Source: Vicinamibacterales bacterium
GTDB taxonomy: Bacteria > Acidobacteriota > Vicinamibacteria > Vicinamibacterales > UBA8438
Assembly (NCBI GenBank): GCA_965246995.1
Contig: OZ252008.1
Location: 64,993 to 128,992 of the forward strand
Reading direction: 5' to 3'
Length of the DNA: 64,000 nt
Part shown: positions 7,771 through 43,840 of the stretch, piece by piece
How positions within the stretch are numbered: the stretch's first letter is position 1
Layout of the letters: every line of letters begins with the position of its first letter
Made by a program: the position numbers and the translations under genes
The notes under the pieces: model-generated
The model's database searches: none
What the model was told of the DNA's origin: nothing
The model's input: only the letters and a program-made list of their open reading frames with translations

Positions 7771-7783
7771 ATTTGGAAAACTG

Positions 7784-20608: not shown

Positions 20609-22039
20609 ATGGGGCGCCATTTCTTTTCGGCCCTTCGCACGCTCGGGGCGCCGGTCCTCCTGCTGCTGGCGGCCCCGGTCGCGAGCGCCCAGACGAGCAA
20701 CGATCCGTTCGGCGAGCCGATACCGGCGGTTGACGGCGTCATTCGCGTTGGCGCCGTCGAGTTCGCCGCACTGCCGGACGTCGGTGGCGAGGCGGCGCGC
20801 ATGATGCGGCTGGTCGATGAGCCGGGCACCGGCCGCCTGTTCGTCAACGACATGCGCGGCATCGTTTACACCGTCAGCTACGACGGCCGGACCGTCACGC
20901 CGTATCTCGATCTCACCGCCACGCGCTGGGCGCTCCAAATCGAGGCGTCCGGCCGCGAGCGCGGTTTCCAGAGCTTCGCCCTCCATCCGCAGTTCGGCGA
21001 GGCCGGGGCGCCGGGGTACGGCAAGCTCTACGCCTACACCGATTCGAACAACACCGCGCCACCGGCCGACTTCGTGTCTGGCGGTGGGAGCGACGCGCAC
21101 GACACGCTGCTGCTGGAGTGGACAGCCGGGGATCCTGCGTCCACGGTCTATGACGGCGGCCCGCCGCGCGAGCTGATGCGGGTCGAGCAGCCGTTCGGCA
21201 ACCACAACGGCGGGCAGCTCGGCTTCAACCCCCTCGCGGCCCCCGGCGATCCCGACTTCGGCCTCCTCTACATCGGGTCGGCGGACGGCGGGAGCGGCGG
21301 CGACCCGCTCGACCTTGCGCAGAACCTTGGCTCGATCTTCGGCAAGATCCTGCGCATCGATCCGCTCGGCTCCAACAGCGCCAACGGCCGGTACGGCATC
21401 CCCGCGGACAATCCGTTTGCGGGCGACGGCGACGCCGGCACGCTCGGCGAGATCTACGCCTACGGCGTGCGCAACCCGCAGCGCTTCGCCTGGGATGTCC
21501 AGAACGGCAACCTGTTTGTGGCCGACATCGGCCAGAACATCGTCGAGGAGATGAGCCTCGTTACGTCAGGCGCCAACCTCGGCTGGAACGACTGGGAGGG
21601 AAGCTTCCGGTTCATCAGCCGTCGCGAGGTCAGTCTGGTCGACCCCCGCGGTGAGGCCGGTCTCAGTTACCCCGTCGCCGAGTACGGACAACTGGATCCG
21701 CTCCTGCAGCCGCGCTCGGCCGCAACCGGCCTCGTCGTCTACCGCGACGACGCGATCCCGCAACTGACGAACCTGGTGCTGTTCGGCGACAGCCCGAGCG
21801 GGGAGATCTTCTACGTTGACGCCGACGATCTGCCCGACGGAGGCCAGGAGTCGATTCGCCGGGTGCTGCTCCACCGCCAGGGCGACACGAAGACGTTGCT
21901 CCAGGTGATTCAGGAAAAGAACGTGGCCCAGGGGCGGACGCCCACCGACCGGGCCGACCTGCGCTTTGGGTACGGTCCCGACGGTCAGGTCTTCCTGCTG
22001 AACAAGCACGACGGCGTGATCAGGCGCCTCGTGCCGTAG
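20609..22039 (+). CDS. PQQ-dependent sugar dehydrogenase (soluble glucose/sorbosone dehydrogenase family, six-bladed propeller)
   Basis: A signal peptide is followed by GFQSFALHPQF, EQPFGNHNGGQLGFNP, LLYIGSADGG, GKILRIDP, GIPADNPF, EIYAYGVRNPQRFAWD and LFVADIGQNIVEE. These are the hallmark blocks of the sGDH/GSDH family. Confidence 0.8.
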   Translation: MGRHFFSALRTLGAPVLLLLAAPVASAQTSNDPFGEPIPAVDGVIRVGAVEFAALPDVGGEAARMMRLVDEPGTGRLFVNDMRGIVYTVSYDGRTVTPYLDLTATRWALQIEASGRERGFQSFALHPQFGEAGAPGYGKLYAYTDSNNTAPPADFVSGGGSDAHDTLLLEWTAGDPASTVYDGGPPRELMRVEQPFGNHNGGQLGFNPLAAPGDPDFGLLYIGSADGGSGGDPLDLAQNLGSIFGKILRIDPLGSNSANGRYGIPADNPFAGDGDAGTLGEIYAYGVRNPQRFAWDVQNGNLFVADIGQNIVEEMSLVTSGANLGWNDWEGSFRFISRREVSLVDPRGEAGLSYPVAEYGQLDPLLQPRSAATGLVVYRDDAIPQLTNLVLFGDSPSGEIFYVDADDLPDGGQESIRRVLLHRQGDTKTLLQVIQEKNVAQGRTPTDRADLRFGYGPDGQVFLLNKHDGVIRRLVP

Positions 22040-26668: not shown

Positions 26669-28738
26669 CTACGGATCGACGGTAATCTCCCCGACGGCCC
26701 AGGGATGATCCTCGCAGTGATAGAGAAAGGTCCCGGGATCGTCGAAGGTGACGAAGCCCCACAGTCCCGGCCCGAGCGTGTCGGTGCTCCAGCTCCCGTC
26801 GCGCGCCGCCACCGTGTGCGCCATCTCGCCGTTGTTGGTGAACCGCACGCGCGTGCCGGCGGTGACGCGGGCCCGGACCGGGTTGAAGTTGTGCTCGTCG
26901 AATGCGTAGCGCCGGCCGCCGACGGAACCTCTCGGGTTCTCGAGGAGCGTGGCGGTCTCGATCTCGTTCGTCTCACGCGGCGTAGGACCGCTCGGCTGAT
27001 CGTCCACCGGCGGGTCGGGCGACGGTTCCCCCCGCGCCGGCACCGTGCCGTCGAGCGTGAACGCCCACAGTTCGGGTCCCATCGCGATAGCGATGTACTG
27101 CGTGCCGTCCAGCGTGTAGGTAGCGGCCGGGCCGGGCCGGAGGCGCGCACCTTCTTCGCTGGTCCGGAACGCCCACCGGCGGGCGCCGGTCCGGACGTCG
27201 TACGCCTCCATCTGCCCGCCGGGCGAACCGCGGAACAACAGGCCGCCCGCCGTGACGAGCGGACCGCTGGTGCCGAGAAACGCGCTCGGCATCTCTTTCT
27301 TCCAGACGACGCGCCCGGTCCGCGTGTCGACGGCGGCCAGGATCCCGACCGCCTCAGGCAGGGTCAGATGGAACCGGGCGGTGTTCCAGACGAACGGATC
27401 CGCGAACCGGCGGGCGCGGCCGACATGCGCGCGACCCTGGGCGTAGACGTAGCCGGTTTGGGGTGAGAACGCCATCGGCGTGACCCGTACCAGCGGAATC
27501 GGCACGCCGGGCGCGACGACGGTCTGTTCGTCGACCGACGGCGGCGTATAGCTGCTGCAATTGAGCTGGAACGGCGGCGGCACGCGGTCGCGCCAGTAGG
27601 AACACTCCGGGAGGATGCTCTCGGTACGGGTCGGGAACGGCTGGGTCGGCACGGTGCGCTGCTGGTCGTCCTGCGGCACCGGCCGGTCCTCGATCGGCAG
27701 GAGCGGCTCGCCGGTCTCCCGGTTGAAGAAAAATAGGTAGCCGTCGGCCCGCATCGCGGCGACCGCCTTGACCGGTTCGCCGTCCATCGTGATGTCGTAC
27801 AGCAGCAGCGGCGTGGCGATGTCGGCGTCCCAGATATCGTGGCGCACCACCTGGTAGTGCCACCGCCGCTCGCCCGTCTCCATGTCGAGCGCGAGGACGG
27901 AAGCCGTGAACAGGTTGTCCCCGTCGCGGAGTTCGCCGCCGAACATCGGCACGGGGTTGCCGGTCGAGAAATAGACCATTCCCAGGTCCGGGTCGACCGT
28001 TCCCTGCAGCCAGACGCCACCGCCGCCGAACTGCCAACTGTCGTTGTCCTGCGGCCAGGTGTCATGGCCGAACTCGCCCGGACGCGGCACGATGAAGAAA
28101 GTCCACTCCACCTCACCGGTCCCGGCATCGAGAGCCACCACCCGGCCCTGTCCGCCGATATCACCATTCGCGATGCCGACAAACACCTTGCCGCGCGCGT
28201 ACATGGGCGCGGTCGTCACCGTCTCGCCCGGCGCCGGTGGGACCTCTCCGACCGGCGTCGCCCAGACCAGTTCGCCGTCTTCCCGATCGAGCGCGATAAC
28301 TTCCCCGCTCCGCGTGCCGAAAAAGATCCGGTCACCGCCCATCGCGACGCCTTGCCACGACGGAACCCGTCCCGCCTCGGGATCCGGCTCCCAGCGCCAG
28401 ATTGGATCGCCCGTCCGCGCATCGAACGCGAAGACGTTCGCGCCGCCGGTCAGGTAGATGACGCCGTCCTGCACCACCGTGGTCGCGCGCGACGACGCGC
28501 CGCCGGGGAGCGGGGTCACCCACGCCGCACCAAGGCGATCGACGGTGTCGGTCGCCACCGCGTCGAGGGTGGAGTAGCGCGAGCTGGACCAGTTACCGCC
28601 GGTGAAGGGCCAGTCGGTGGACGGATAGCCGCGGCCCGGATCAGGGGCCTGCCCGGCGAGGCCGCCCGCGAGCAGCAGGACCGTGATCACCGATGCCGCA
28701 ACGGCGACGATGGCGCGATAGGGTCGAGGCGTGATCAT
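26669..28738 (-). CDS. PQQ-type eight-bladed propeller dehydrogenase fused to a C-terminal amicyanin-like cupredoxin domain (paralogue A)
   Basis: ATG at 28738 is preceded by GGAGAG. After a signal anchor come propeller blocks: GGNWSSSRYSTL, VVQDGVIYLTGGANVFAFDARTGDPIWRW, GRVVALDAGTGEVEW, GGGVWLQGTVDPDLGMVYFSTGNP, NLFTASVLALDMETGERRWHYQVVRHDIWDAD, DGYLFFFNRETGEP. The C-terminal ~95 aa read RVRFTNNGEMAHTVAARDG...GTFLYHCEDHPWAVGEITVDP, which aligns with the amicyanin ligand loops (..MPHNV.. / YHCTPHPFMRGKVVVE). Confidence 0.8.
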   Translation of the reverse strand: MITPRPYRAIVAVAASVITVLLLAGGLAGQAPDPGRGYPSTDWPFTGGNWSSSRYSTLDAVATDTVDRLGAAWVTPLPGGASSRATTVVQDGVIYLTGGANVFAFDARTGDPIWRWEPDPEAGRVPSWQGVAMGGDRIFFGTRSGEVIALDREDGELVWATPVGEVPPAPGETVTTAPMYARGKVFVGIANGDIGGQGRVVALDAGTGEVEWTFFIVPRPGEFGHDTWPQDNDSWQFGGGGVWLQGTVDPDLGMVYFSTGNPVPMFGGELRDGDNLFTASVLALDMETGERRWHYQVVRHDIWDADIATPLLLYDITMDGEPVKAVAAMRADGYLFFFNRETGEPLLPIEDRPVPQDDQQRTVPTQPFPTRTESILPECSYWRDRVPPPFQLNCSSYTPPSVDEQTVVAPGVPIPLVRVTPMAFSPQTGYVYAQGRAHVGRARRFADPFVWNTARFHLTLPEAVGILAAVDTRTGRVVWKKEMPSAFLGTSGPLVTAGGLLFRGSPGGQMEAYDVRTGARRWAFRTSEEGARLRPGPAATYTLDGTQYIAIAMGPELWAFTLDGTVPARGEPSPDPPVDDQPSGPTPRETNEIETATLLENPRGSVGGRRYAFDEHNFNPVRARVTAGTRVRFTNNGEMAHTVAARDGSWSTDTLGPGLWGFVTFDDPGTFLYHCEDHPWAVGEITVDP

Positions 28739-29333: not shown

Positions 29334-31079
29334 ATGCGTCTGCTCCCTCGACCCGTTTGCGGCGTGATCGCGGCGTGCCTGCTCGCGGGAGCGTTCGTCT
29401 CGGCACAGTCCCCCACCGACGACTACACGCCGGTCACCGAGCAGATGCTCGTCGACCCCCCGGGGGACGACTGGCTGATGTGGCGGCGCAGCTACAACCA
29501 CTGGGGTCACAGCCCCCTCGACCAGATCGACACCACTAATGTCGGTGACCTGCGCCTCGCCTGGGCGTGGACCATGGCGGAGGGCCTGCAGGAGACCACG
29601 CCGCTCGTCCACGACGGCATCATGTTCCTGGTCCAGGCGTGCGACTACGTCGAGGCGCTCGACGTTCGCGACGGCACCCGGCTGTGGGAATACCGCCGGC
29701 CGCGGGTCGAGCACGCCGCCACGCTGGCCTGCGCGAACCGCAACGGGACCCTCTACGAAGACAAGCTGTTCATCGGCACCCACGACGCCCATCTGGTGGC
29801 GCTCGACGCGCGCACCGGCGAGGTGGTGTGGGACCAGACGGTCGGCGACTGGGAGGTCGGCCAGCACTACTCCGGCGGGCCGCAGATCATCAAGGGCCGG
29901 GTGGTGGCCGGGATGTCGGGCTGTTACTACCTCAATACGCGCTGCTGGATTTCGGCCCACGACGCCGAGACCGGGGAGGAGGCGTGGCGCACCTACACGA
30001 TTCCCCGCGCCGGCGAGTTCGGCTACGACACCTGGGGTGACATCCCGGACGAGATGCGGCGCGGCGGCTCCTCATGGAATGCGCCGAGTTACGACCCCGA
30101 GCTGAATCTGATCTACGCGGGCGTCGGGGTGCCGATTCCGTGGGGCTCGGTGCAGCGCGGCACCGGCGACGGCGATGTCCTCTACACGAATTCCACCCTC
30201 GCAATCGACGCCGACACGGGCGAAATCGTGTGGTACTTCCAGCACACCCCGAACGACGAGTGGGATCTCGACCATCCGTACGCCCGGCTCATCGTCGAGA
30301 CCGAGGTGTCGCCGGACCCCGACGCGGTCGAATGGTTGAACGGCGGGATCACGCCCGGCTCGCGGCGGAAGATCGTGACCGGCATCCCGGGCAAGACGGG
30401 TATCGTCTGGGCGCTCGATGCCGCCACCGGGGCGTTCCTCTGGGCCGAGCCGACGAACCGCCAGAACGTGGTCGCCGATGTCGACGCCGAGAGCCGCCGC
30501 GTGATCCTCAACGAGGCGCTCAAGTTCCCGCAGGTCGGCGAGCCGGTCTACGTCTGTCCGAGCCTGACCGGCGGCATCAACTGGAACGCGACCGCCTACC
30601 ACCCGGGCACCAATGCCCTGTATGCGCCGACCAACAACGTCTGCATGAACATCACGCTCAACGAGTTCCGTGACCGCACGGGCTTCCACCATGGGTCGGC
30701 GGGAGCCACGCGCGAGGTGGCGCCGGACGTCGACGGGCAGGTCGGCATGCTGACGGCGATGAATATGGCGACGGGTGGAACGCTATGGGTTCATCGCCAG
30801 CGGGCCGGCATCGGCGGTTCCGTCCTGACCACCGGCGGCGGGCTGGTGTTCGTGACCGATGACGCGCGCCGCTTTCGAGCGTTCGACGCGCAGACCGGCG
30901 AGATCCTCTGGGAGCAGATCCTCAACTCGAGCGCCGGTGGCTTCCCGGTGAGCTACATGCACGACGGCGTGCAGTACGTCGCCATCGCGGCCGGAGGCGG
31001 CGTCAACTACCGGATGGTCACGCCGGAAGTCCAGCAGCCGCCGCGCGGCAACATACTCTACGTCTTCCGGCTTCGCTGA
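29334..31079 (+). CDS. PQQ-dependent dehydrogenase, eight-bladed propeller (methanol/ethanol-family-like), no fused redox domain
   Basis: A signal peptide is followed by DDWLMWRRSYNHWGHSPLDQI, TPLVHDGIMFLV, VALDARTGEVVW, ISAHDAETGEEAW, SSWNAPSYDPELNLIYAGVG, LAIDADTGEIVWYFQHTPNDEWDLD, VWALDAATGAFLW, LTAMNMATGGTLW and FRAFDAQTGEILW (repeated W-motif blades). Confidence 0.8.
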   Translation: MRLLPRPVCGVIAACLLAGAFVSAQSPTDDYTPVTEQMLVDPPGDDWLMWRRSYNHWGHSPLDQIDTTNVGDLRLAWAWTMAEGLQETTPLVHDGIMFLVQACDYVEALDVRDGTRLWEYRRPRVEHAATLACANRNGTLYEDKLFIGTHDAHLVALDARTGEVVWDQTVGDWEVGQHYSGGPQIIKGRVVAGMSGCYYLNTRCWISAHDAETGEEAWRTYTIPRAGEFGYDTWGDIPDEMRRGGSSWNAPSYDPELNLIYAGVGVPIPWGSVQRGTGDGDVLYTNSTLAIDADTGEIVWYFQHTPNDEWDLDHPYARLIVETEVSPDPDAVEWLNGGITPGSRRKIVTGIPGKTGIVWALDAATGAFLWAEPTNRQNVVADVDAESRRVILNEALKFPQVGEPVYVCPSLTGGINWNATAYHPGTNALYAPTNNVCMNITLNEFRDRTGFHHGSAGATREVAPDVDGQVGMLTAMNMATGGTLWVHRQRAGIGGSVLTTGGGLVFVTDDARRFRAFDAQTGEILWEQILNSSAGGFPVSYMHDGVQYVAIAAGGGVNYRMVTPEVQQPPRGNILYVFRLR

Positions 31080-31177
31080 AACGCGCGGCTCCGGCAGCGC
31101 GTAGTTGCTGCGGAACGCCTGGGAACGGCCCCTACCGTTGACGGACCGGGGGCTTGGGTAATACCGTATTACCTCTC

Positions 31178-31420
31178 ATGGCGACAGTCTCCTTCAAGGT
31201 CAGTGACGAGGAAGCCCGCCTGATAAGGACCCGGGCCAGGAGGGAGGGCGTCAGCGTCTCGGAGTACCTCCGGCGCCGGGCGCGTCTCGCCATGCCCGCG
31301 CCCAGCTCGCCCAGGCTTGTGCGGTGTCCGCATACGGGCGCGATGATCTTCGCCGCCCCGGAGGACCAGCCCCCGCTCACGACAGACACGGTGCAGGACC
31401 TTCTCGCGGACTTCCCGTGA
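31178..31420 (+). CDS. vapB: Ribbon-helix-helix antitoxin (VapB-like), second copy in window
   Basis: MATVSFKVSDEEARLIRTRARREGVSVSEYLRRRA is an RHH fold. The stop overlaps the PIN gene start (GTGA). Confidence 0.7.
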   Translation: MATVSFKVSDEEARLIRTRARREGVSVSEYLRRRARLAMPAPSSPRLVRCPHTGAMIFAAPEDQPPLTTDTVQDLLADFP

Positions 31421-31830
31421 AGTACCTCCTGGACGTCAACGTCCTCGTCGCATGGGGGTGGTCCGATCATGTCGCCCATGAGCAAACCGCCAAGTGGATC
31501 GCCGCTACGATGAAGCAGAGGGCCTCCCGGTTGCTGACATCGCCGATCCCGGAGCTTGGGTTCGTCCGCGTGTCGGTTCAACGCACGGCGGGACGCGTGA
31601 CGGTCAGTGCGGCGGGAGACGCGCTGGCAGGCATGCTGCGCAGCCTCGGTGCACACCATGCCTTTCTGCCCGACGACCAGCCGGCCCGCGGGTTCCCCGA
31701 GTGGTGTCGTCAGGCGTCGCGCACCACGGACGCCCACGTTCTGGAGCTAGCGAAGGCGCACGGGGCGAGACTCGCCACGCTCGACGAACGTATTCCTGGA
31801 GCGTTCCTCGTTCCCGGCTCGCGCGAGTGA
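31417..31830 (+). CDS. vapC: PIN-domain toxin (VapC-like), second copy
   Basis: GTG at 31417 gives (M)KYLLDVNVLVAWGW...ELGFVRV...TTDAHVLELAKAHGARLATLDERI, with the acidic PIN residues in the expected places. Confidence 0.75.
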   Translation: MKYLLDVNVLVAWGWSDHVAHEQTAKWIAATMKQRASRLLTSPIPELGFVRVSVQRTAGRVTVSAAGDALAGMLRSLGAHHAFLPDDQPARGFPEWCRQASRTTDAHVLELAKAHGARLATLDERIPGAFLVPGSRE

Positions 31831-31834
31831 CGCG

Positions 31835-34018
31835 CTACGGTAGCGCGTAGGCCGCCAGCGAGCCGGGGAACCCGGTCTGGATGCTGCCGACCTGCACGAC
31901 GATGTACTGCTTGCCCTCGTGCAGGTAGGTCATCATGCCGTACTGGCCGGGAGCCGGAAGCTCGACGCTCCCGCGGATCTCACCGGTGTACTTGTCGCGG
32001 CCATGCAGCATCGACGGCGCGTCGGGGACAATCTGCCGCGTCCCCTCGCTCAGGGAGCGGGTCTGCACGAGCAGGTCGCCGGTCACCATCTGAATCGAGA
32101 AGCCGGCGCCGCCGGCGTTCGGAATATCGATGCCCGCGAGCCGCGGATTGTCGCGGATCACCTGAGCCGTCTCTCCGACCGGTAGCGACCAGGCCTTCTC
32201 CCCGGTATTCATCTGGTACGCCGTGAGCTGATTGTCCATCGGCTTGTAGAGCCGCAGGCCGTCGAGGGTCGGCAGGCCCGTTACCGAAACGAACGGCTCC
32301 TGCTCGGGGGTGGGCCGGTGGAAGCCGCCCGGCAGCCACGCGGCGACCGTGGTTCCCGTGGTGGGGGTCGAATTGGGGGTGGCGCCTCCGGGGCCGGGCC
32401 GCGCGTAGTCCGGATCGTCCTCGTCGACGCCGCCGGTCGGCCGCATGAACGACCGCGCGTTGCAGGTGCGGCGATGCGAATTGAACATCATCCCGGTGCT
32501 CGGGTCGGCGACCGGCGGGTGCGGAATGACGTTGCCGCCGCCGAGGCAGCCGACGTTGTTGTAGAAGTCGTTCGTGTGGTTCTGCGGAAGTGCCGGCACA
32601 TACAGGCCGCCCACGCGGTAGTGCTCGAGGATCCTCAGTGCTTCCTGCTTCAGCTCCGGCGTGTAGTCGATGACGAATTCCTCGGTCAGGCCATTCAGCA
32701 CAATGGGGTCGACCGGCTCGGGCCGGGTCGGATACGGCTGCCGCGGCGACGTGTAGTTGCCCGGCACCTCGGTCTGGATGACCCGCCGATCCTCGATCGG
32801 CCAGATTGGCTCGCCCGTCTCCCGGTTGAAGGCGAAAACCAGTCCCTGCTTCGTGTTCTGGATCAGCGCCGGAATGGTCTCGCCGTCCACGGTCAGATCC
32901 ATCAGCATCGGCGGGGTCGGCAGGTCGTAGTTCCACTGATCGCTACGGTGGATCTGGAAGTGCCAGCGGCGCTCCCCGGTCCGGACGTCCAGCGCGAGGA
33001 CGCAGCCCCCGAACAGGTTGTCGCCCGGCCGGTGTCCCGCGTAGCTCTGGATGGTCGAGGCGTTCGTCACCAGATAGACGAGTCCGAGTTCCGGATCGGC
33101 CGACGCCGGCGCCCAGGTCGACATGTCGCCCGACCACTGCCACGCGTCGTTGTGCCACGTCTCGTGACCGAACTCGCCCGGGCGCGGGATCATGTGGAAC
33201 TTCCAGAGCACTTCACCGGTCGCCGCATCGACCCCCATCACGTCGCCCGGAACGTTCTCGATCCGCGTCTGCCCGTAACTTGGCTGATGGCCGACCAGGA
33301 CCACGACGACGCCGTTCACCACGATCGGCGGCGACGAGCTGGTCACCATCCCCAGTTCGCGCGGAATGCCGTAGCCGGGGTCGTAGCTGGCGGAACGATC
33401 CTGCCAGCGCCCCCAGTCCTCGACGAGCGGCGGGATCAGGTCCAGCCCGCCGCTCTCCGGAAACCCCTCCAGCGGGACCGCCCTTCCCCAGTTCTCGAGC
33501 GGTCGCCCCGTCTCGGCGTCGAGCGCCCAGAGGAAGAAGGCGGGGCTCGTGACGAAGATGACGCCGCGGCCGTTCACTTCCGCGTAGGCGACACCCTTGC
33601 CGTAGGCCTGACGCGGCGAGCGCAGGTGCCGGACGGTTTCCGGCTCGCGGAACGTCCAGAGTGTCTCGCCGGTCGCCGGATCGATCGCCACCACCTGCCG
33701 GCGGGGCGAGGCGACCGTGTAGAGGACGCCGTCGACGTAGATCGGCGTGGCGCGGTTGAAGTAGTCGAGATTCGGACCGAAGTTGTCTCCCCGCCAGGTC
33801 CAGGCCACCTCGAGGTCGGAGAAGTTGCCACCGTTGATCTGATCGAGCGACGAGGAACGCGTATGGCCCACGTCGCCCCCGAGGTAACGCCACTCGCCGT
33901 TCTCGGTCCCGGTCAGGCGCTGTGCCTGCGCGGTGGCCGCGGCCAGCAGCGCGACGGCGAAGACGCCGGCGAGGACTCCGATGCGGGCGGGGGTCTGCGA
34001 TCTGAAGAATCCAGGCAT
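31835..34018 (-). CDS. PQQ-type eight-bladed propeller dehydrogenase (glucose-dehydrogenase-like, soluble), 727 aa
   Basis: A signal peptide is followed by GEWRYLGGDVGHTRSSSLDQI, TPIYVDGVLYTV, VVAIDPATGETLW, LWALDAETGRPL, VMGVDAATGEVLWKF, PGEFGHETW, LVYLVTNAS, CVLALDVRTGERRWHFQIHRSDQWNYD, LVFAFNRETGEPIW and LTAYQMNTGEKAW. Confidence 0.75.
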   Translation of the reverse strand: MPGFFRSQTPARIGVLAGVFAVALLAAATAQAQRLTGTENGEWRYLGGDVGHTRSSSLDQINGGNFSDLEVAWTWRGDNFGPNLDYFNRATPIYVDGVLYTVASPRRQVVAIDPATGETLWTFREPETVRHLRSPRQAYGKGVAYAEVNGRGVIFVTSPAFFLWALDAETGRPLENWGRAVPLEGFPESGGLDLIPPLVEDWGRWQDRSASYDPGYGIPRELGMVTSSSPPIVVNGVVVVLVGHQPSYGQTRIENVPGDVMGVDAATGEVLWKFHMIPRPGEFGHETWHNDAWQWSGDMSTWAPASADPELGLVYLVTNASTIQSYAGHRPGDNLFGGCVLALDVRTGERRWHFQIHRSDQWNYDLPTPPMLMDLTVDGETIPALIQNTKQGLVFAFNRETGEPIWPIEDRRVIQTEVPGNYTSPRQPYPTRPEPVDPIVLNGLTEEFVIDYTPELKQEALRILEHYRVGGLYVPALPQNHTNDFYNNVGCLGGGNVIPHPPVADPSTGMMFNSHRRTCNARSFMRPTGGVDEDDPDYARPGPGGATPNSTPTTGTTVAAWLPGGFHRPTPEQEPFVSVTGLPTLDGLRLYKPMDNQLTAYQMNTGEKAWSLPVGETAQVIRDNPRLAGIDIPNAGGAGFSIQMVTGDLLVQTRSLSEGTRQIVPDAPSMLHGRDKYTGEIRGSVELPAPGQYGMMTYLHEGKQYIVVQVGSIQTGFPGSLAAYALP

Positions 34019-34107: not shown

Positions 34108-36167
34108 TCACGGCTCGACGGTGATCTCACCGACCGCCCACGGATGCTCCGTGCAGTGGTAAACGAACGTGCCCGGCTCGTCGAAGGTCACGACTCCCCA
34201 CGTCGCCGGGAGAAGGGCGCCGGTGGTCCAGCTCCCGTCGCGCGCCGCCACGGTGTGCGGCATCTCGCCATTGTTGACGAACCGGACGCGCGCCCCGGCC
34301 GTCACCAGGGAGCGCACCGGGTTGAACGCGTGCTCGTCAATGGCATAGCGCCGGCCGCCCACGGACCAGGAGGGGTTCTCCATGAGCGTCGCCGTCTCGA
34401 TCTCGTCGGTCGCGCGCGGGGCGGGGCCGGACGGTGCGAGGTCCGCCCAGGGATCCGCCGGCGCCTCGCCGCGTGCGGCGACGCCGCCGCCGAGGGCGAA
34501 CGCCCACAGCTCGCGACCCATCGTAATCGCGATGAACTGCTCGCCGTCGAGCTCGTACGCCGCGGCGGGCCCCGGCCGCACCCGGGCACCGGTTTGTGTC
34601 GTCTGGAAGGCCCAGACGCGCGCGCCGGTCCGCGCGTTGTAGGCCTCGACCTGGCCGCCGGGCGAGCCGCGGAACATCAGGCCGCCCGCGGTCGTGAGGG
34701 GCCGCTCGTGCCGAGCAGCGGACTCGGCACCTCCTGCTTCCACACCACCCGGTTGGTCTGCGGGTCGACGGCGGCGATGATGCCGATGGCGTCCGGCAGG
34801 CTGATGTGGCCACCGCTCGGGCGCGACAGCCACGGATCCGCGAAACGGCGGGCGCGCCCGACGTGGGCGTGCCCCTGCGCATAGATGTACCCGGTCCCCG
34901 GGCTGAAGGACATCGGCGTAACCCGCACGCGCGGAATCGGCGCGCCGGGCGCCACGACGGTGTGGCCGTCCGCCGAGGGCGGCGTGTACGTACTGCAGCT
35001 CAACTCGAACGGGGGCGGCACCCGGTCGCGCCAGAACGTGCAGTCCGGCAGGATGCTCTCGGCTCCGACGGGAAACGGCTGGGTCGGCGCGGTGTGCAGG
35101 AACGCGTCCTGGGGCACCTCTCGCTCTTCGATCGGCACGAGCGGCTCGCCGGTCTCGCGATCGAACAGGAAGAGGTAGCCGTCCGCCCGCATCGCGGCCA
35201 GCGCCTTGCGCGGCGCGCCGTCCACTTGCGCGTCGTAGAGCAGCAACGGGGTTGCGATGTCCGCGTCCCAGACGTCGTGCCGGACCACCTGGTAGTGCCA
35301 CCGCCGCTCACCGGTTTCCATGTCGAGCGCGAGCACGGAAGCGGTGAACAGGTTGTCGCCGGCCCGGATCTCGCCCCCGAACATCGGTACCGGGTTCCCG
35401 GTCGAGAAATAGACCAGACCCAGCTCGGGATCGACGGTTCCGACCAGCCAGACACCCCCGCCGCCGAGCTGCCACGTCTCGTTATCCTGCGGCCAGGTAT
35501 CGTGGCCGAACTCTCCCGGCCGCGGCACGACGAAGAACGTCCACTGCGTCTCGCCGGTCGCCGCATCCAGCGCGATGACGCGCCCCTGCCCGCCGCTGTC
35601 ACCGTTGGCCAATCCGACGAAGACCTGCCCGCGCGCATACATCGGCGCCGTGGTGACGCCCTCGCCCTCCCGTCGCGGCTCGCTGCCGACGGAAGTGATC
35701 CACGCCAGTTCCCCGGTGTCCAGGTGAAGCGCGATCACCTGCGCGCTGCGGAGGCCGGCGAAGACGAGGCCCTCTCCCAGCCCGACGCCCTGCCAGGACG
35801 GGACCATCAGCGGGTCGTCGCTCGGCGGCTGCCAGCGCCAGACCGTCTCGCCGGTCCGGGCGTCGATGGCGAACACGTTGGCCCCGGCCGTCAGGTAGAG
35901 GACGCCATCCTGCATCACTGGCGTCGCCCGCGATGCCGCGCCGCCCGGAAGGGCCATGACCCAGGCGCCGCCCAGCCGGCCGACGGTATCCAGGGTGATG
36001 TCATCGAGGGTCGTGTAGCGTGAGCTTGACCAGTTCCCTCCGACCAGCGGCCAGGCGCTGGCCGGATAGCCACTGCCGCCCTCCGGATCCTGTCCCTGCA
36101 CGCCGGGCGGCAGGACCGCGATTCCGGCCGTCAGCGCGACGGCAAGTCCCCACTGAAGTCCACGCAT
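34108..36167 (-). pseudogene. PQQ dehydrogenase::cupredoxin fusion, paralogue B, interrupted by a 1-nt frameshift
   Basis: The N-terminal 496 codons (ORF 34677..36167) and the C-terminal part (tail of ORF 34108..35301) are colinear with paralogues A and C. The frames switch at the G4 run 34698-34701; one extra G/C would restore ...GTSGPLTTAGGLMFRG.... The C-terminus reads NNGEMPHTVAARDG...YHCTEHPWAVGEITVEP. Confidence 0.8.
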
Positions 36168-36255: not shown

Positions 36256-37257
36256 ATGCGCAAAACATGCTTCGCCGCGTTCCTCGGTTTCGCACTCGCG
36301 CTCACATTCGCAGCTTGGCCAGCTCTCGCCCAATCGGGCGGCGGCGATATGCCGATGCGAACCCCCGACGGGCATCCGGATATCTCCGGCCTCTTCACCT
36401 TCCGGACGTTGACACCGATGCAGCGTCCGTCCCAGTTCGAGGGACGAGAGACGCTCGACGCCGAGGAGGCCGCAGCGTTCGAGGCGTCCGAACGGACGCG
36501 TCAGAACCGTGATCTCTTCGACCCCGAGACGGGAGCGCCGAACGCGGGATACCAGTCGCGCGCCGCCGGGGGCGTGCTCTCGTACAACGAGTTCTGGTAC
36601 GAACGGGGCGTCGAGCTGACCTCGGACAAGCGGACGTCGCTCATCATCGATCCGCCCGACGGGCGGTACCCTCCGCGGACCGAGGCGGCCCTGCAGCGAG
36701 ACCAGGAGCGGTCCGCCTACCGTCGGGAGCACCTGTACGACTCGTACGAGAACCGGGGCCTGGGCGACCGCTGCATCATGTTCGGGAAGTCGGGCCCGCC
36801 GATCCGGCCCGGGGCGTACAACAACAACCTGATGATCTTCCAGACGGCCGACAACGTCGTGATTTTCACCGAGCAGGCGCGTCAGGCGCGGGTCATCCCG
36901 CTCGACAACACGGAGAAGCCACAGTTCGAGCAGCTCGCCGGCGTGTCGCGCGGACACTGGGAGGGGGAGACGCTGGTCATCGAGACCACGCAGTTCCGCG
37001 ATTGGGGGAACGGGCGGACCGGCCCGAACGTGCACCTGGTCGAACGGCTCACCCGGGTTGATCCCGATACCGTTGCCTACGAGTACACCGTGACCGACCC
37101 GTCGACGTACACCGCACCCTATACGGTCATGTTGCCATTCCGGCGGACCGATGGCCCGATCTTCGAATACGCCTGCCACGAAGGCAACATCGGGCTGCAC
37201 GGCATCCTGGCCGGGGCGCGGAAGCTCGAGCGTGACGGGCGCGAGTTGCGTCCCTGA
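36256..37257 (+). CDS. Secreted protein of unknown function, conserved C-terminal FEYACHEGN motif (paralogue 1)
   Basis: The signal peptide is FLGFALALTFAAWPALAQ. Conserved blocks shared with the next gene are PDGHPD(I/V)(S/G)G, TPLQRP, YN.FW..RG, RTSLIIDPPDGR.P, GDRCI, AYNNN, GHWEG(E/D)TLV(I/V)ETT, ERLTRV and GP(I/M)FEYACHEGN. Confidence 0.55.
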   Translation: MRKTCFAAFLGFALALTFAAWPALAQSGGGDMPMRTPDGHPDISGLFTFRTLTPMQRPSQFEGRETLDAEEAAAFEASERTRQNRDLFDPETGAPNAGYQSRAAGGVLSYNEFWYERGVELTSDKRTSLIIDPPDGRYPPRTEAALQRDQERSAYRREHLYDSYENRGLGDRCIMFGKSGPPIRPGAYNNNLMIFQTADNVVIFTEQARQARVIPLDNTEKPQFEQLAGVSRGHWEGETLVIETTQFRDWGNGRTGPNVHLVERLTRVDPDTVAYEYTVTDPSTYTAPYTVMLPFRRTDGPIFEYACHEGNIGLHGILAGARKLERDGRELRP

Positions 37258-37325: not shown

Positions 37326-38387
37326 ATGAATCGTCTTTCCTGTGTGCATGTCGGGTTGGGCGCGGTGGTCTTGGCGGCATGCGTCATCCTGGCGCCGGTC
37401 GCGGGGTGGTCCCAGACGGCGGCGGAGGAGGATTGGGTATCGCCCCGGACACCGTGGGGCGACCCTGATGTCGGCGGCGTCTGGAACAGCTCCACCGTAA
37501 CGCCGCTCCAGCGTCCGGAGGAGCAGGCCGGCAAGGAATTCCTGACCGAGGAGGAAGCGGCGGCCATCGAGCAGGGCGTCGTCGACGCCAACGCCCGCGC
37601 GAACGCGCCCAGTGTCGTTCGCACCGAACCCCTGCCGGTAGGTGGCAACGTCGGCGGCTACAACAGCTTCTGGCTGGATCGGGGGACGACGGTCGTCCCG
37701 ACGCGGCGCACGTCGCTCGTCATCGACCCGCCGAACGGGCGCCTGCCCGCGCTCACGCCGGAGGCCGAGGCGTACATCACGTCGCCGGAGCGGCAGCGGC
37801 TGAAGGCGGTGCGGGAGGGGATGGTGCCGGCCGACTCTTACGAGCAGTTCGACTATGGCGACCGCTGCATCTGGTATCGCGGCGTCCCTTCGCTGCCCAC
37901 CGCCTACAACAACAACTACCACCTCGTTCAGACCGAGGATGTCATCGCGATCGTGCAGGAGCACATCCACGACGTCCGCTTCATTCACCTCGACGGCCGC
38001 CCCGCGATCGACGATCGCATCAGTCAGTTCGGCGGTCATTCGCGCGGACACTGGGAGGGCGACACGCTGGTTGTCGAGACGACCCACTTCGGCGACCGGG
38101 CCTACCTGTTCTCGTCCGGCCCGGGACCGCAGGGCGGCACGAACTGGGATCTCAGCCCGGCCCTGCGGGTCGTGGAGCGATTCACCCGCGTGGGACCCCG
38201 GACGCTCGACTACGAGTTCACGGTGGACGATCCGAACGTCTGGACCCGCCCGTGGACCGGGTCCTCACCGTGGGCCCGCGGCGACGGACCGATGTTCGAG
38301 TACGCGTGCCACGAGGGCAACTACGGGATGCAGAACATCCTCGCCGGCTCGCGCGCCGAGGAGGCGAGGGTCAGGGATCGACGGTAA
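37326..38387 (+). CDS. Secreted protein of unknown function, FEYACHEGN motif (paralogue 2)
   Basis: ATG at 37326 gives MNRLSCVHVGLGAVVLAACVILAP.... The protein is colinear with 36256..37257 over its whole length. Its 3' end overlaps the convergent PQQ paralogue C by 17 nt. Confidence 0.55.
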   Translation: MNRLSCVHVGLGAVVLAACVILAPVAGWSQTAAEEDWVSPRTPWGDPDVGGVWNSSTVTPLQRPEEQAGKEFLTEEEAAAIEQGVVDANARANAPSVVRTEPLPVGGNVGGYNSFWLDRGTTVVPTRRTSLVIDPPNGRLPALTPEAEAYITSPERQRLKAVREGMVPADSYEQFDYGDRCIWYRGVPSLPTAYNNNYHLVQTEDVIAIVQEHIHDVRFIHLDGRPAIDDRISQFGGHSRGHWEGDTLVVETTHFGDRAYLFSSGPGPQGGTNWDLSPALRVVERFTRVGPRTLDYEFTVDDPNVWTRPWTGSSPWARGDGPMFEYACHEGNYGMQNILAGSRAEEARVRDRR

Positions 38388-40452
38388 TCTCGGCGATCGC
38401 CCAGGGGTGCTCCTCGCAGTGGTAGAGGAACGTGCCTGCCTGGTCGAACGTGACGTAGACCGACATCGCCGGCGCCAGCGTGCCGGTCGTCCAGCTCCCG
38501 TCGCGCGCCGCCACCGTATGGGCGACCTCGCCATTGTTCTGGAACCGCAGCCGGTCACCGGCCGCCACCCGCGTGCGCACCGGGTTGAATGCATGCTCGT
38601 TCAGCGCGTTGCGCCGGCCGCCGTACGACCAGGAGGGATTCTCGACCAGCGTGCCGGTCTCCACCAGGTCCGTCGCGCGCGGCGGTGGACCGATCCAGCG
38701 GACCAGATCGTCAATCTCCCCCGGGACCGCCGGTCCCCGCGCCGGAACCTCCCCGTCGAGCGCGAATGCCCAGAGCTCGCGTTCGAACGACGCCGCGATG
38801 TACTGCCGGCCGTCCACCTCGAAGGACATAGCCGGGCCGGGACGCTGCCGGGTCCGCGGCGCGCCCGCCTGGAAGCCCCAGACCTGCTCCCCGGTCCGCG
38901 CGTCGTAGGCCTCGATCAGACCGTCCGCCGCCGCCCAGAACATCAGTCCGGTCGCGGTCAGTAGCGGGCCGCTGGTCGAGAGGCGCGCGCCACGGAACTC
39001 GTTCTTCCAGACCACGCGGCCGGTCCGCCCGTCGACGGCGGCCAGGATGCCAACGGACTCGGGGAGCGTCAGCCGGAGGTAGCCGCTCGCCCGGTTGTCC
39101 GAGATCCAGGGATCCTCGAAGCGGAACGCGCGGCCGACATGCCCGCGCCCCTGGGCGTAGATGTAGCCGGTCTGCGGCGAGAACGCCATCGGCGTGACGC
39201 GCACCATCGGGATCGGCACGCTCGGCGCGACCACCGCATGTTGATCGATTCCCGGCGGCGTGTAGGCGCTGCAGTTGAGCGTGAACGGCGGCGGCACCCG
39301 ATCTCGCCAGAACGAACAGTCCGGCAGGATGCTCTCGACACCGACCGGGAACGGCTGCGTCGCCGCGGTCAGGAGGCGGTCGTCCTGCGGCACCGGCCGG
39401 TCCTCGAGCTCCACGATCGGTTCGCCCGTCTCGCGGTTGAAGAGGAAGAGATAGCCGTCGGCGCGAATCGCGGCGAGCGCCGGCACCGGCTCGCCGTCTA
39501 TCTCGGTGTCGTACAGCAGGACCGGTGTCGCGATGTCGGCGTCCCAGATGTCGTGGCGCACGACCTGGTAGTGCCAGCGGCGCTCGCCCGTCTCCATATC
39601 GAGCGCGAGAACCGATGCCGTGAACAGATTGTCGCCCGCCCGGATCTCGCCGCCGTACATCGGAACCGGATTGCCGGTCGAGAAATAGACCATGCCGAGG
39701 TCGGGATCGACCGTCCCGACCAGCCAGACGCCGCCGCCCCCCACCTGCCAGATGTCGGAATCCTGCGGCCAGGTGTCATGGCCGACCTCGCCGGGGCGGG
39801 GCACCACGAAGAAGGTCCAGAGGACTTCGCCGGTGCGCGCATCGAGGGCGTGGACCCGTCCCTGTCCCCCGCTGTCGCCGTTCGCGAGGCCGACGAACAC
39901 CTTGCCGCGCGCGTAGATCGGCGCCGTGGTGACCGTCTCGCCTTCCGCCTGCGGAACGCTGCCTACCGGGGTCGCCCAGACCAGCTCCCCCGTCTCCTGA
40001 TCGAGCGCGGCCACTTCCGCGCTCCGCAGTCCGATGAATACGTGGCCGTCGCCGAGGCCAACGCCCTGCCAGGACGGCACGCGCTGCGACGCGGGGTCCT
40101 CCGCCTGCCAGCGCCAGATCGGCTCGCCGGAGCGCGCGTCGAGGGCAAAGACGTTTGCACCCCCGGGCATATAGATGACACCGTCCTGCACGACGGGCGT
40201 CGCGCGCGACGAAACGCCGCCCGGAAACTCGGCCACCCAGGCGCCGCCCAGCCGGTCGATGGTGTCGGGGGCGATCTGGTCGAGCGTCGTATAGCGGGAA
40301 CTGGAGGTGTTCCCGCCCGCAAGCGGCCAGTCGGCAACCGGATAGCCCTGACCCGGTTCCGGCGCCTGTCCGACCAGGCCCGCCGTCAACGCGAAGACCC
40401 CCGCTACAACCACCGGAATTGCTATCCCGAATCGAAGGTGTGATCTGCTCAT
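38371..40452 (-). CDS. PQQ-type dehydrogenase fused to a C-terminal amicyanin-like cupredoxin domain (paralogue C)
   Basis: 693 aa, colinear with paralogue A (GGNTSSSRYTTLDQI, VVQDGVIYMPGGANVFALDARSGEPIWRW, HYQVVRHDIWDAD ...). The C-terminus reads RLRFQNNGEVAHTVAARDG...GTFLYHCEEHPWAIAEITVDP. Confidence 0.8.
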   Translation of the reverse strand: MSRSHLRFGIAIPVVVAGVFALTAGLVGQAPEPGQGYPVADWPLAGGNTSSSRYTTLDQIAPDTIDRLGGAWVAEFPGGVSSRATPVVQDGVIYMPGGANVFALDARSGEPIWRWQAEDPASQRVPSWQGVGLGDGHVFIGLRSAEVAALDQETGELVWATPVGSVPQAEGETVTTAPIYARGKVFVGLANGDSGGQGRVHALDARTGEVLWTFFVVPRPGEVGHDTWPQDSDIWQVGGGGVWLVGTVDPDLGMVYFSTGNPVPMYGGEIRAGDNLFTASVLALDMETGERRWHYQVVRHDIWDADIATPVLLYDTEIDGEPVPALAAIRADGYLFLFNRETGEPIVELEDRPVPQDDRLLTAATQPFPVGVESILPDCSFWRDRVPPPFTLNCSAYTPPGIDQHAVVAPSVPIPMVRVTPMAFSPQTGYIYAQGRGHVGRAFRFEDPWISDNRASGYLRLTLPESVGILAAVDGRTGRVVWKNEFRGARLSTSGPLLTATGLMFWAAADGLIEAYDARTGEQVWGFQAGAPRTRQRPGPAMSFEVDGRQYIAASFERELWAFALDGEVPARGPAVPGEIDDLVRWIGPPPRATDLVETGTLVENPSWSYGGRRNALNEHAFNPVRTRVAAGDRLRFQNNGEVAHTVAARDGSWTTGTLAPAMSVYVTFDQAGTFLYHCEEHPWAIAEITVDP

Positions 40453-40722: not shown

Positions 40723-42567
40723 TTGGCTGACGTGACGACGACGGAAACCGCCTCCCCCGCGGCAGGCGGGAGCGAAGGACACGACGCCGCACACGGGCAC
40801 GGTGAGCACGAGCATCACGAGCTCGGCTTCTGGCAGACCTACGTCTTCTCGGTCGATCACAAGGTAATCGGCATCCAGTACGCCGTGACCGGCCTGCTCT
40901 TCCTGTTGTTCGGCTTCACGCTGATGGTGGTGATGCGCTGGCAGATCGCCTATCCCGGCGAGCCGATTCCCTTGATCGGCACCTGGCTGGGCGCGGAACG
41001 GGCGCCGGACGGCATCATGTTGCCGGAGTTCTACAACCAGTTGGGCGCGATGCACGGCACCATCATGGTGTTCCTCGGCGTCGTTCCCCTCGCCGTCGGC
41101 GGCTTCGGCAACTTCGTCCTGCCGCTGCAAATCGGAGCGCCCGACATGGCGTTCCCGAAGCTCAACATGGTGAGCTACTGGAGCTTCTTCGTGGGCGGCG
41201 TCGTCATGTTCGCCAGCTTCTTCGTGCCGGGCGGAGCCGCCAACTCCGGCTGGACCTCGTATGCGCCCCTGTCCGTGTTCGCCACGACCGGGCAAACGAT
41301 GTGGCTTGCGGGGATGATGTTCCTGATCACGTCGTCACTGCTCGGCTCGGTCAACTTCATCGTCACGACGATTCAGTTGCGCGCACCGGGGCTTTCGTTC
41401 ATGCGGCTGCCGTACTTCGTCTGGGCGCAGCTCGTCACCGCGTTCCTGCTGCTGCTCGCCTTTCCTCCGCTCGAGGCAGCCGGCGTACTGCAGTTGATGG
41501 ACCGGGTGGCAGGCACCAGCTTCTTCATGCCGAGCGGCCTCGTCTACGCCGACTCCCCGGTCGAGGCGAGCGGTGGCGGCAGTGTGCTGCTCTGGCAGCA
41601 CCTCTTCTGGTTCCTGGCGCACCCGGAGGTGTACGTCCTTATCCTCCCGGCCCTCGGCATCGTCACCGATATCGTGGCCAACAACACGCGCAAGCCGATC
41701 TGGGGTTACAGCGTGCTGGTCTACTCGACCGTCTTCCTGGGCTTCATGTCGTTCATCGTCTGGGCGCACCACATGTTCCTGACCGGCATGGGAACGACGA
41801 TGAGCTCATTCTTCCAGACGACCACGATGATCATCTCGATCCCGTCGGTCATCATCCTGTCGTCGCTCTTCATCTCGCTCTACGGAGGATCGATCCGGTT
41901 CACCGTGCCGATGCTCTTCGCCCTGGCTTTCCTGCCGATGTTCGGGATCGGCGGACTGACCGGGCTTCCACTCGGCCTCTCCGCACCGGACATCCACCTG
42001 CACGACACCTACTACGTCATCGGGCACTTCCACTACGTCGTGGCGCCGGGGACGCTGATGGCGCTGTTCGGGGGCGTCTACTACTGGTTCCCGAAGGCGA
42101 CGGGCCGCAAGATGAACGACCTGCTGGGCCGCATTCATTTCTGGGGTTCGTTCATCGCGATCAACGTCGTCTTCATGCCGATGTTCTACCAGGGTTTGTC
42201 CGGGATGAACCGCCGGATGTACGACGGCGGCGCGCAGTACACGATGAACGCGGACGTGCTGTGGCTGAACGAGGTGATCAGCATCGCGGCGTGGGTGCTG
42301 GGCCTCTTCCAGTTGCCGTTCATCTACAACTTCTTGAACAGCATCAAGCGCGGGGAGAAGGTAGGCGACAACCCGTGGCAGGCGACCACGCTCGAATGGC
42401 AGGCGCCGTCGCCACCGCCGCACGGGAACTTCGCCACGCCGCCGCGGGCGTACCGCGGCCCGTACGAGTACAGCGTGCCGGGCGCGGCCAGTGACTTCAT
42501 GATGCAGGGCGAGGCGGATCCCCCCAGCTCGGGGACCCCGGCGGCGGCCAAGCCGGCCGGCGCCTGA
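40723..42567 (+). CDS. ctaD: Cytochrome c oxidase subunit I (A-type haem-copper oxidase)
   Basis: TTG at 40723 lies 8 nt after AAGGAG. Motifs include DHKVIGIQY, QLGAMHGTIMVFL, WQHLFWFLAHPEVYVLILPALG (CuB His and the cross-linked Tyr, with the D-channel Glu in HPEVY), VWAHHMF and YYVIGHFHYV. Confidence 0.95.
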   Translation: MADVTTTETASPAAGGSEGHDAAHGHGEHEHHELGFWQTYVFSVDHKVIGIQYAVTGLLFLLFGFTLMVVMRWQIAYPGEPIPLIGTWLGAERAPDGIMLPEFYNQLGAMHGTIMVFLGVVPLAVGGFGNFVLPLQIGAPDMAFPKLNMVSYWSFFVGGVVMFASFFVPGGAANSGWTSYAPLSVFATTGQTMWLAGMMFLITSSLLGSVNFIVTTIQLRAPGLSFMRLPYFVWAQLVTAFLLLLAFPPLEAAGVLQLMDRVAGTSFFMPSGLVYADSPVEASGGGSVLLWQHLFWFLAHPEVYVLILPALGIVTDIVANNTRKPIWGYSVLVYSTVFLGFMSFIVWAHHMFLTGMGTTMSSFFQTTTMIISIPSVIILSSLFISLYGGSIRFTVPMLFALAFLPMFGIGGLTGLPLGLSAPDIHLHDTYYVIGHFHYVVAPGTLMALFGGVYYWFPKATGRKMNDLLGRIHFWGSFIAINVVFMPMFYQGLSGMNRRMYDGGAQYTMNADVLWLNEVISIAAWVLGLFQLPFIYNFLNSIKRGEKVGDNPWQATTLEWQAPSPPPHGNFATPPRAYRGPYEYSVPGAASDFMMQGEADPPSSGTPAAAKPAGA

Positions 42568-42618
42568 CGAGCGGACAAATCGAACGGATGAACGAAGGAC
42601 AGGGCAGAACGTCGAGAC

Positions 42619-43215: not shown

Positions 43216-43239
43216 CTCGCGGAGGACGACAAGCGAACC

Positions 43240-43584: not shown

Positions 43585-43610
43585 GGAACGCGAAACCGAC
43601 AGAGGCCACC

Positions 43611-43820: not shown

Positions 43821-43840
43821 CGGTCGCGGAGGGTTCTGCC

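Follow-up and report, generated by a model that had tools for sequence, protein, structure and literature searches.

Within a stretch of 64,000 nucleotides (nt) from a soil acidobacterium of the order Vicinamibacterales (contig OZ252008.1, positions 64,993 to 128,992), hereafter the window, lie three paralogous genes, c1, c2 and c3, whose products join a propeller of the pyrroloquinoline quinone (PQQ) type covalently to an amicyanin-like cupredoxin. This architecture holds on profile, structure-database and fold evidence, and in each copy it runs in the same order, from a signal-peptide-like segment through the propeller and a linker to a C-terminal cupredoxin domain of about 100 amino acids (aa). 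An original prediction for the window had described three such fusion proteins, a description that stands for the domain order and requires correction at one point, in that c2 is not a single open reading frame (ORF) in the window. The reading that we favour, to which we give a probability of about 0.6, is that these proteins are periplasmic quinoprotein dehydrogenases equipped with a copper electron-transfer module of their own, or 'quinocuproproteins', in which electrons would pass from PQQ to copper and from copper to an external acceptor.

Two domains in one chain and their conservation

In both c1 and c3 the Pfam PQQ family PF01011 is matched with an E-value (E) of 1e-82, and the best solved sequence relatives of the propeller are PedH (6zcv, E 1e-59) and alcohol dehydrogenase (ADH) IIB (1kv9, E 2e-57). 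The latter is also the best fold match of an AlphaFold2 model of c1, with E 1e-36 over 617 columns in Foldseek. The model was built on 64 family members and has a mean predicted local distance difference test (pLDDT) score of 79 and a predicted template modelling (pTM) score of 0.81. Within it the linker and cupredoxin of c1 reach pLDDT values of 83-97, which suggests that the linker is packed and not floppy. At the N-terminus a charged start is followed by a hydrophobic segment, modelled as a helix over residues 7-25, and by small residues ahead of Gln30, such that residues 1-29 read as a putative signal peptide. An identical c1 product is called on other assemblies.

The C-terminal domain is likewise recognised by profile. 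When searched alone it scores 28.5 (c1), 28.3 (c2) and 24.2 bits (c3) against the Pfam Copper-bind family, where the gathering score is 21.2, and Cupredoxin_1 is passed by c1 (29.9 bits) and c3. Inside the full-length proteins the cupredoxin matches lie near the Pfam thresholds, which explains why a precomputed cupredoxin hit accompanies only 14 of the 120 homologues listed by a full-length search with c1. Against the PDB the c1 domain finds the C-terminal tethered cupredoxin of 9cck (E 2e-11), then the blue copper protein 5fc9 (E 4.5e-6), plastocyanins and amicyanins, and a profile made from 22 domains of the family finds 9cck at 1e-14, all amicyanins at about 1e-8 and plastocyanin at 1e-6. 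Both sets of profile matches place the domain inside the cupredoxin fold. The amicyanin equivalog TIGR02657 is not reached (22.9 bits against a cut-off of 110.2), and to call the predicted domain amicyanin-like, and not an amicyanin, is a fair description.

Fundamental to the proposed function is the copper site. The first ligand loop reads NNGEMAHTV in c1, NNGEMPHTV in c2 and NNGEVAHTV in c3, and the second follows the pattern YHC(E/T)(D/E)HPWA(V/I)(G/A)EITV. A BLASTP comparison of the domain with an amicyanin sequence gives E 7e-8 and brings His641, Cys675 and His678 of c1 into register with the His of MPHNV and with the Cys and His of YHCTPHP in amicyanin. All three window copies have the complete His-Cys-His set and all three have Ala at the axial position, where it aligns with the axial Met of amicyanin, and the fourth copper ligand is therefore absent. 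The alignment of these loops with amicyanin, as originally predicted, is consequently sound for the motifs and for the three ligands, and fails for a full His-Cys-His-Met copper set. The ligand loop, C-x2-H-x2-X, has the length found in amicyanin, whose loop is described as the shortest natural type 1 loop (PMC6115626).

Turning to the propeller, four residues of c1 align with PedH positions that are metal ligands in this family of enzymes (Table 1; PedH residues carry the chain numbering printed in the PDB alignment). They include the catalytic Asp and, two residues further on, an additional Asp, both within the motif H-D-I-W-D304-A-D306 that is present in all three copies. Such an extra Asp two residues past the catalytic one is a hallmark of lanthanide-dependent enzymes (bioRxiv 10.1101/2020.02.25.964783), and by this signature the metal of the site may be a lanthanide. 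Cys379 and Cys394 of c1 are also conserved, and are located in an insert.

How widely is this combination of domains found? The full-length search with c1 listed 120 homologues, some 690 aa long and at least 66% identical, whose names, where they have any, are 'PQQ-binding-like beta-propeller repeat protein [Acidobacteria bacterium]' or 'alcohol dehydrogenase (cytochrome c)'. A genome scan with two domain motifs, taking one genome per species, gave 126 confirmed stretches, from which 74 loci were listed; the scan patterns did not match c3, and c3-type genes are in consequence under-sampled among these loci. All 74 are in Vicinamibacterales or in unclassified Acidobacteria metagenome-assembled genomes (MAGs), often with several per genome, and at 68 of them a propeller in the same orientation terminates fewer than 200 nt before the cupredoxin; of the remaining six loci, four are truncated by contig ends.

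When the 103-aa domain was used by itself in a word-index search for homologues, no more than 20 matches came back, all of them short fragments, too little to judge breadth by. An exhaustive search of representative proteins with the domain returned, as its best 150, mostly tandem-cupredoxin proteins, whose scores are additive over their repeats. The same search also gave three fragments (P0248, P0267 and P0225) in which the end of a PQQ propeller is followed by a cupredoxin and then by a cytochrome c. A metagenome scan seeded with fragments of this type yielded 189 confirmed stretches. At 21 of the loci (L082-L102; soil and peat) a single ORF of about 790-930 aa, full length in 18 cases, encodes a full propeller and a cupredoxin, with a single CxxCH motif in the domain that follows at the C-terminus; the propeller is 43-51% identical to that of c1 and the cupredoxin is Met-less. 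For two of these ORFs, of 788 and 815 aa, Pfam reports PQQ, Cupredoxin/Copper-bind and Cytochrome_CBB3. In this order of three domains PQQ and haem flank the copper domain. The two-domain form, without cytochrome c, occurs at more than 50 further metagenome loci. Across the soil metagenomes the relatives are 42-51% identical to the window proteins, and judged by sequence the PQQ-cupredoxin fusion is a large family, widespread in soil bacteria, and not a local oddity.

As to the tandem-cupredoxin proteins, which are the closest non-fusion relatives of the cupredoxin domain, they are large and contain 3-10 repeats (P0141-P0163, among the best 150); P0141, for instance, has 1154 aa and 7-8 cupredoxin repeats by Pfam. 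Some of them match weakly to PF23509, 'MSMEG_3727, PQQ-associated', a family that is not listed for the window cupredoxin domains in a Pfam scan with E up to 5.

The relatives allow the conservation of both sites to be followed over a considerable distance. Among 83 distinct Vicinamibacterales domains the His-Cys-His set is kept in 75, and Ala occupies the axial position in 79 and Met in four. In 52 distant metagenomic relatives the three ligands are present without exception and the axial residue is Val in 29, Ser in 16, Ala in six and Thr in one, Met being absent. The propellers of the distant relatives (52 distinct, full-length proteins) retain Asp193 in 51, Asn261 in 50 and Asp306 in all 52, as they do Trp243, Arg330 and Asp332, while position 304 is Glu in 42 and Asp in nine. 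Such conservation at identities below 50% speaks for an active site and a copper site that both function. The domain is, moreover, under purifying selection that is stronger than that on the propeller, with median ratios of nonsynonymous to synonymous substitution rates (dN/dS), taken against 20 c1 orthologues, of 0.11 for the cupredoxin and 0.17 for the propeller.

The proposed electron route and its alternatives

What, then, would a copper domain contribute to a quinoprotein? In the proposed mechanism a substrate, which may be an alcohol, an aldehyde or a sugar, would be oxidised at the PQQ-metal site within the eight-bladed propeller, where the metal is possibly a lanthanide, given the Asp signature. 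The two electrons would leave PQQH2 singly for a type-1-like copper held in the tethered cupredoxin by, in c1, His641, Cys675 and His678. An external periplasmic acceptor would receive them from the copper; a cytochrome c could fill this role, as could possibly the CuA centre of an oxidase of the aa3 type. Lacking an axial Met, the copper site is expected to be three-coordinate or water-capped and to have a raised potential. A weaker axial interaction raises the potential of a type 1 site (PMC6115626), and a Met-less site should therefore lie relatively high, which would suit it as an acceptor for PQQH2. Two structural analogies favour a relay as well, since the structural relative nearest to the domain, in 9cck, is a tethered electron-transfer cupredoxin and the nearest fold relative of the whole protein is a quinohaemoprotein.

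A number of observations weigh against this route, at the copper, at the quinone and at the acceptor. With regard to the copper, the axial Met is absent from the window copies and is missing in nearly all members of the family. In addition, eight of the 83 Vicinamibacterales domains (about 10%; loci L023, L025, L026, L059, L063, L068, L071 and L077; proteins P0003, P0017 and P0021) have exchanged the first His for Arg and/or the Cys for Ser in a domain and ORF that are otherwise intact, from which it follows that the domain can persist without a copper site. These features would suit a cupredoxin that is not a relay at all, acting instead as a structural or docking appendage that may be free of copper, or holding a copper site with an open axial position that performs chemistry or binds small ligands. 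The matched cupredoxin 5fc9, which has a non-Met residue at the same position (HPWRVG), points in the same direction, that protein being reported to have an open copper site that reacts with nitric oxide. A non-relay role is nevertheless unlikely when set against the retention of His-Cys-His in all 52 distant and in 90% of close relatives, the stronger purifying selection on the domain, and the position of the cupredoxin between propeller and cytochrome c in the tri-domain relatives. Type 1 sites without a coordinating axial residue work as electron-transfer centres, as in fungal laccases, and an amicyanin with Ala at this position has been crystallised, the top-scoring PDB amicyanin chain (2idq/2ids) reading HPFARG; this is presumably the M98A axial-ligand mutant, which reportedly still binds copper.

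With regard to the quinone, the propeller is without the vicinal Cys-Cys ring, the PCCDV of PedH aligning with VPSWQGV, and no CC is present in that region in 50 of 53 distant relatives. A metal-ligand Glu is furthermore replaced by Asp (Asp193). At the metal and catalytic positions the residues are, taken together, conserved if non-canonical. The true PQQ family TIGR03075 is matched at 311 bits by c1 and 299 by c3, below its cut-off of 480, and the best NCBIfam match, at 322 and 306 bits and below a cut-off of 650, is TIGR04528, the 'acido-empty-quinoprotein group A', a name that allows for a quinoprotein homologue without PQQ. From these comparisons the window proteins appear as a separate, divergent clade of the quinoprotein superfamily. 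They could on this basis be 'empty' homologues, in which a propeller lacking PQQ is no PQQ dehydrogenase and the cupredoxin has some other redox or binding role, and with this agrees the lack of any pqq biosynthesis gene among the genes annotated in the window. We regard an empty propeller as rather improbable. The 322 bits are far under the TIGR04528 cut-off and about equal to the score for TIGR03075, hardly any variation is seen at 42-51% identity in the acidic and amide metal positions, in the stacking Trp243 or in Arg330, and the window holds three other genes of PQQ families. PQQ may also be scavenged, as importers of the PqqU type without PQQ synthesis are reported in the class Vicinamibacteria (PMC12124388). 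Marine Acidobacteria MAGs, for their part, carry very large repertoires of lanthanide-type PQQ dehydrogenases (PMC11996626).

With regard to the acceptor, a haem-copper oxidase operon lies upstream of c3 in divergent orientation. It has an unusual order, with COX1 (40723-42567) followed by COX3, COX4, two small ORFs and COX2 (44120-44866). The COX2 protein carries the CuA motif CSQLCGLGHYRM, with Gln in place of the canonical Glu, and is without a cytochrome c domain. The adjacency is kept beside an 89% identical c3 orthologue, and is absent in a relative of 75% identity and at every one of the 74 listed loci, among which c3-type genes are under-sampled. Because it is lost beyond close relatives, the neighbouring oxidase as a possible downstream acceptor is suggestive only. 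A cytochrome c partner is not at hand either: a six-frame translation of the window contains three CxxCH motifs, all in ORFs of 17-39 aa, and no c-type cytochrome is thus encoded in the 64 kb.

One may go further and see in these proteins a distinct class of respiratory enzyme, namely lanthanide/PQQ dehydrogenases with a naturally Met-less, three-coordinate type 1 copper, of which those of Vicinamibacterales would pass electrons straight to the CuA site of the neighbouring aa3 oxidase with no c-type cytochrome between, and whose tri-domain relatives would be an evolutionary link to the quinohaemoproteins. In this extended form the proposal is quite doubtful.

The three copies and their genomic setting

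In the window c2 is read in two frames, as one ORF at 34677-36167 and another at 34108-35301. It is interrupted at a run of four Cs (GGCCCCTCACG, near 34703; 34695-34710), where five are required to read G-P-L-T-T. The fifth C is present in three assemblies (L001-L003) that match the window at 99.7-99.8% identity, where c2 is uninterrupted and has 686 aa, and in a fourth assembly of the region (L004) several genes are fragmented in a pattern typical of indel errors. The frameshift is either a homopolymer error or a strain-specific lesion, the more probable being that the source assembly was misread at this homopolymer. A programmed frameshift and an old pseudogene were both considered for c2 and rejected, as the gene is intact in the three near-identical assemblies.

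Any two of the copies share 69-71% of their amino acids and 72-74% of their nucleotides. Orthologues particular to each copy are present in other genomes, at 85-92% identity for c1, 81-91% for c2 and 89% for c3. The divergence of about 30% in protein and the separate orthologues imply that the triplication is old and that each copy has been kept; they also rule out a recent duplication or gene conversion. The original prediction had derived a paralogous expansion from long stretches of nucleotide identity in the cupredoxin region. The expansion itself stands, in that there are three paralogues. The stretches are not its signal, as the longest identical runs between copies span only 26-30 nt and two of the three fall in the propeller. 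The weakest alternative, that assembly or gene calling has created the fusion artificially, or that the three copies stem from a functionally meaningless recent duplication or gene conversion, could appeal to the c2 frameshift and to the L004 genes broken as if by indel errors, but retains next to no probability, an assembly or annotation artefact being excluded, given that the same continuous ORF occurs at 68 of the 74 listed genome loci and on dozens of metagenome contigs, that the copies are about 30% apart in protein with their own orthologues at 81-92%, and that c2 is intact in three other assemblies.

The fusion genes are set within an island of periplasmic propeller enzymes (Table 1). 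Beginning with c3, the island continues with two unknown secreted paralogues, c2, a 727-aa PQQ dehydrogenase, a PIN/NikA-like pair, a 581-aa PQQ dehydrogenase, a DUF6265 protein and c1, after which come an NHL/SGL propeller, a 5'-nucleotidase, another NHL protein and a six-bladed GSDH. The NHL/SGL propeller and the 5'-nucleotidase were considered as a clue to a sugar or lactone substrate, an idea that was dropped since they are present at only 2-4 of the 74 listed loci. The NikA-like/PIN toxin-antitoxin pair (31154-31830, plus strand) sits between two PQQ dehydrogenase genes, a position that is kept at locus L081, where the c3-type gene is 75% identical. On the far side of the oxidase operon, COX2 is followed by genes for a DsbA-like protein (45269-46318, minus), a flavin adenine dinucleotide (FAD) oxidase (46396-48012) and a copper-type P-type ATPase (48398-51001, minus).

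The two secreted paralogues between c2 and c3, of 333 and 353 aa, are 40% identical to one another and have at least 8000 homologues, none with a label other than hypothetical; close to the C-terminus the motif E-x-A-C-H-E-G-N is invariant. Neither has a match in Pfam, NCBIfam or the PDB, and an AlphaFold2 model of the family is poor (pLDDT 57), with weak matches to barrels like those of fatty-acid-binding proteins and lipocalins at E 1e-3. A homologue of this family lies within 10 kb of a fusion gene at 36 of the 74 listed Vicinamibacterales loci and at only three of 80 metagenome loci of the wider fusion family.

Near the start of the window, positions 1547-10886 form a mobile and defence region, which comprises a restriction-modification fusion resembling MmeI (1547-5167), a DDE transposase that carries a PIN domain (5164-7770) and a further transposase (9480-10886). 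The GC content falls to 0.51 at 6001-8000.

Table 1. Positions in the window of the fusion genes, of their domains and aligned site residues, and of selected neighbouring genes
Feature	Position	Strand	Remarks
Copy 1 (c1)	26669-28738	minus	Intact ORF of 689 aa; signal peptide, PQQ propeller, linker and cupredoxin, the first putative
c1 signal-peptide-like segment	28652-28738	minus	aa 1-29, MITPRPYRAIVAVAASVITVLLLAGGLAG; read from the sequence
c1 eight-bladed PQQ-type beta-propeller	27053-28621	minus	aa 40-562; from PDB, Foldseek and PedH alignment
c1 Pro-rich linker	26975-27052	minus	aa 563-588
c1 cupredoxin domain	26672-26974	minus	aa 589-689; from Pfam, PDB and family profile
c1 Asp193	28160-28162	minus	Aligns with PedH Glu199; Glu replaced by Asp
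c1 Asn261	27956-27958	minus	Aligns with PedH Asn281; kept
c1 Asp304	27827-27829	minus	Aligns with PedH Asp323, the catalytic Asp
c1 Asp306	27821-27823	minus	Aligns with PedH Asp325, the extra Asp
c1 putative copper ligands	His641 26816-26818; Cys675 26714-26716; His678 26705-26707	minus	From amicyanin alignment
c1 axial position, Ala681	26696-26698	minus	Aligned with the axial Met of amicyanin
Copy 2 (c2)	34108-36167	minus	Same architecture; 686 aa after restoring one C; split at about 34703
c2 cupredoxin domain	34111-34419	minus	NNGEMPHTV ... YHCTEHPWAVGEITVEP; Pfam Copper-bind 28.3 bits
Copy 3 (c3)	38371-40452	minus	Intact ORF of 693 aa; same architecture
c3 putative copper ligands	His645 38518-38520; Cys679 38416-38418; His682 38407-38409	minus	
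c3 axial position, Ala685	38398-38400	minus	
Six-bladed GSDH, PQQ family	20609-22039	plus	Without extra redox domain
581-aa methanol/ethanol-type PQQ enzyme	29334-31079	plus	Without extra redox domain
727-aa glucose/quinate-type soluble PQQ enzyme	31835-34018	minus	Without extra redox domain
Two secreted uncharacterised paralogues	36256-37257 and 37326-38387	plus	333 and 353 aa; between c2 and c3
Haem-copper oxidase operon	40723-44866	plus	Divergent from c3 and upstream of it; from gene calls and Pfam

Significance and comparison with known systems

Known quinoproteins release their electrons via a fused haem domain, a separate cytochrome or a separate cupredoxin. A quinoprotein with a built-in one-electron domain is accordingly already known, as is a cupredoxin that acts as the acceptor of a quinone-cofactor dehydrogenase. 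What appears to be new, provisionally, is the combination of PQQ and cupredoxin, the natural Met-less copper site on a short loop, and the variant that runs from propeller to cupredoxin to cytochrome c. Individual papers name separate blue copper proteins as possible acceptors (PMC7300363) or, among fused domains, cytochromes alone (PMC6472588; bioRxiv 10.64898/2026.07.10.737718). In line with the original prediction, which knew of no biochemically characterised quinoprotein with a fused blue-copper acceptor, a search of full-text literature, whose coverage leaves subscription journals mostly outside, found no description of a PQQ-cupredoxin fusion, and 'undescribed' is to be taken as provisional.

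If the favoured reading is true, a natural PQQ-copper fusion would represent a third solution to the wiring of quinoproteins. It would also be a ready-made candidate for biosensors and biofuel cells based on direct electron transfer, for which cytochrome-bearing enzymes are currently relied upon (review, PMC6472588). The natural axial series of Ala, Val, Ser, Thr and Met within one scaffold would allow the tuning of redox potential to be studied. The family, abundant in Vicinamibacterales and in other soil bacteria and bearing a lanthanide signature, is annotated only as 'PQQ-binding-like beta-propeller repeat protein'. The small fraction of listed homologues with a precomputed cupredoxin hit suggests that a sizeable part of the periplasmic oxidation chemistry of soils may be hidden by incomplete annotation.

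Of the known systems, the type II quinohaemoprotein ADHs, such as ADH IIB of Pseudomonas putida HK5 (1kv9) and the enzyme of Comamonas testosteroni (1kb0), resemble the window proteins in that a soluble periplasmic PQQ propeller of eight blades is joined through a linker to a one-electron domain at the C-terminus of the same chain. The window proteins differ in ending in a cupredoxin and not a cytochrome c, with no CxxCH in any of the three copies. Their propeller is also set apart by the missing Cys-Cys ring and by an Asp for the metal-binding Glu. The identity is only about 25%. Some of their relatives carry both domains, in the order propeller, cupredoxin and cytochrome c. The lanthanide PQQ ADHs (PedH 6zcv/6zcw, ExaF and XoxF) provide the best PDB sequence match and have the Asp of W-D-A-D in common with the window proteins, yet they have no fused redox domain, rely on separate cytochromes, and keep both the Cys-Cys ring and the Glu ligand.

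On the copper side, amicyanin, the acceptor of methylamine dehydrogenase, is the closest free-standing solved cupredoxin family and has the same short ligand loop. The role proposed for the window domain, which would be to accept electrons from a quinone-cofactor dehydrogenase, is also the same. Amicyanin, however, is a separate protein that serves a tryptophan tryptophylquinone (TTQ) enzyme and has an axial Met98, whereas the window domain is fused to a PQQ-type propeller and has a natural Ala. The three-domain copper nitrite reductases (9cck; TsNirK) give the precedent for an enzyme-fused cupredoxin as a built-in electron-transfer module, and the tethered C-terminal cupredoxin of 9cck, with its motif C-T-L-H-P-W-M, is the single best structural relative of the domain. 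In these reductases electrons flow from the cupredoxin to a copper enzyme, and an axial Met is retained (Gln in TsNirK, PMC6400189), whereas the window domain would accept electrons from a quinone cofactor, and would do so at a copper without a coordinating axial residue.

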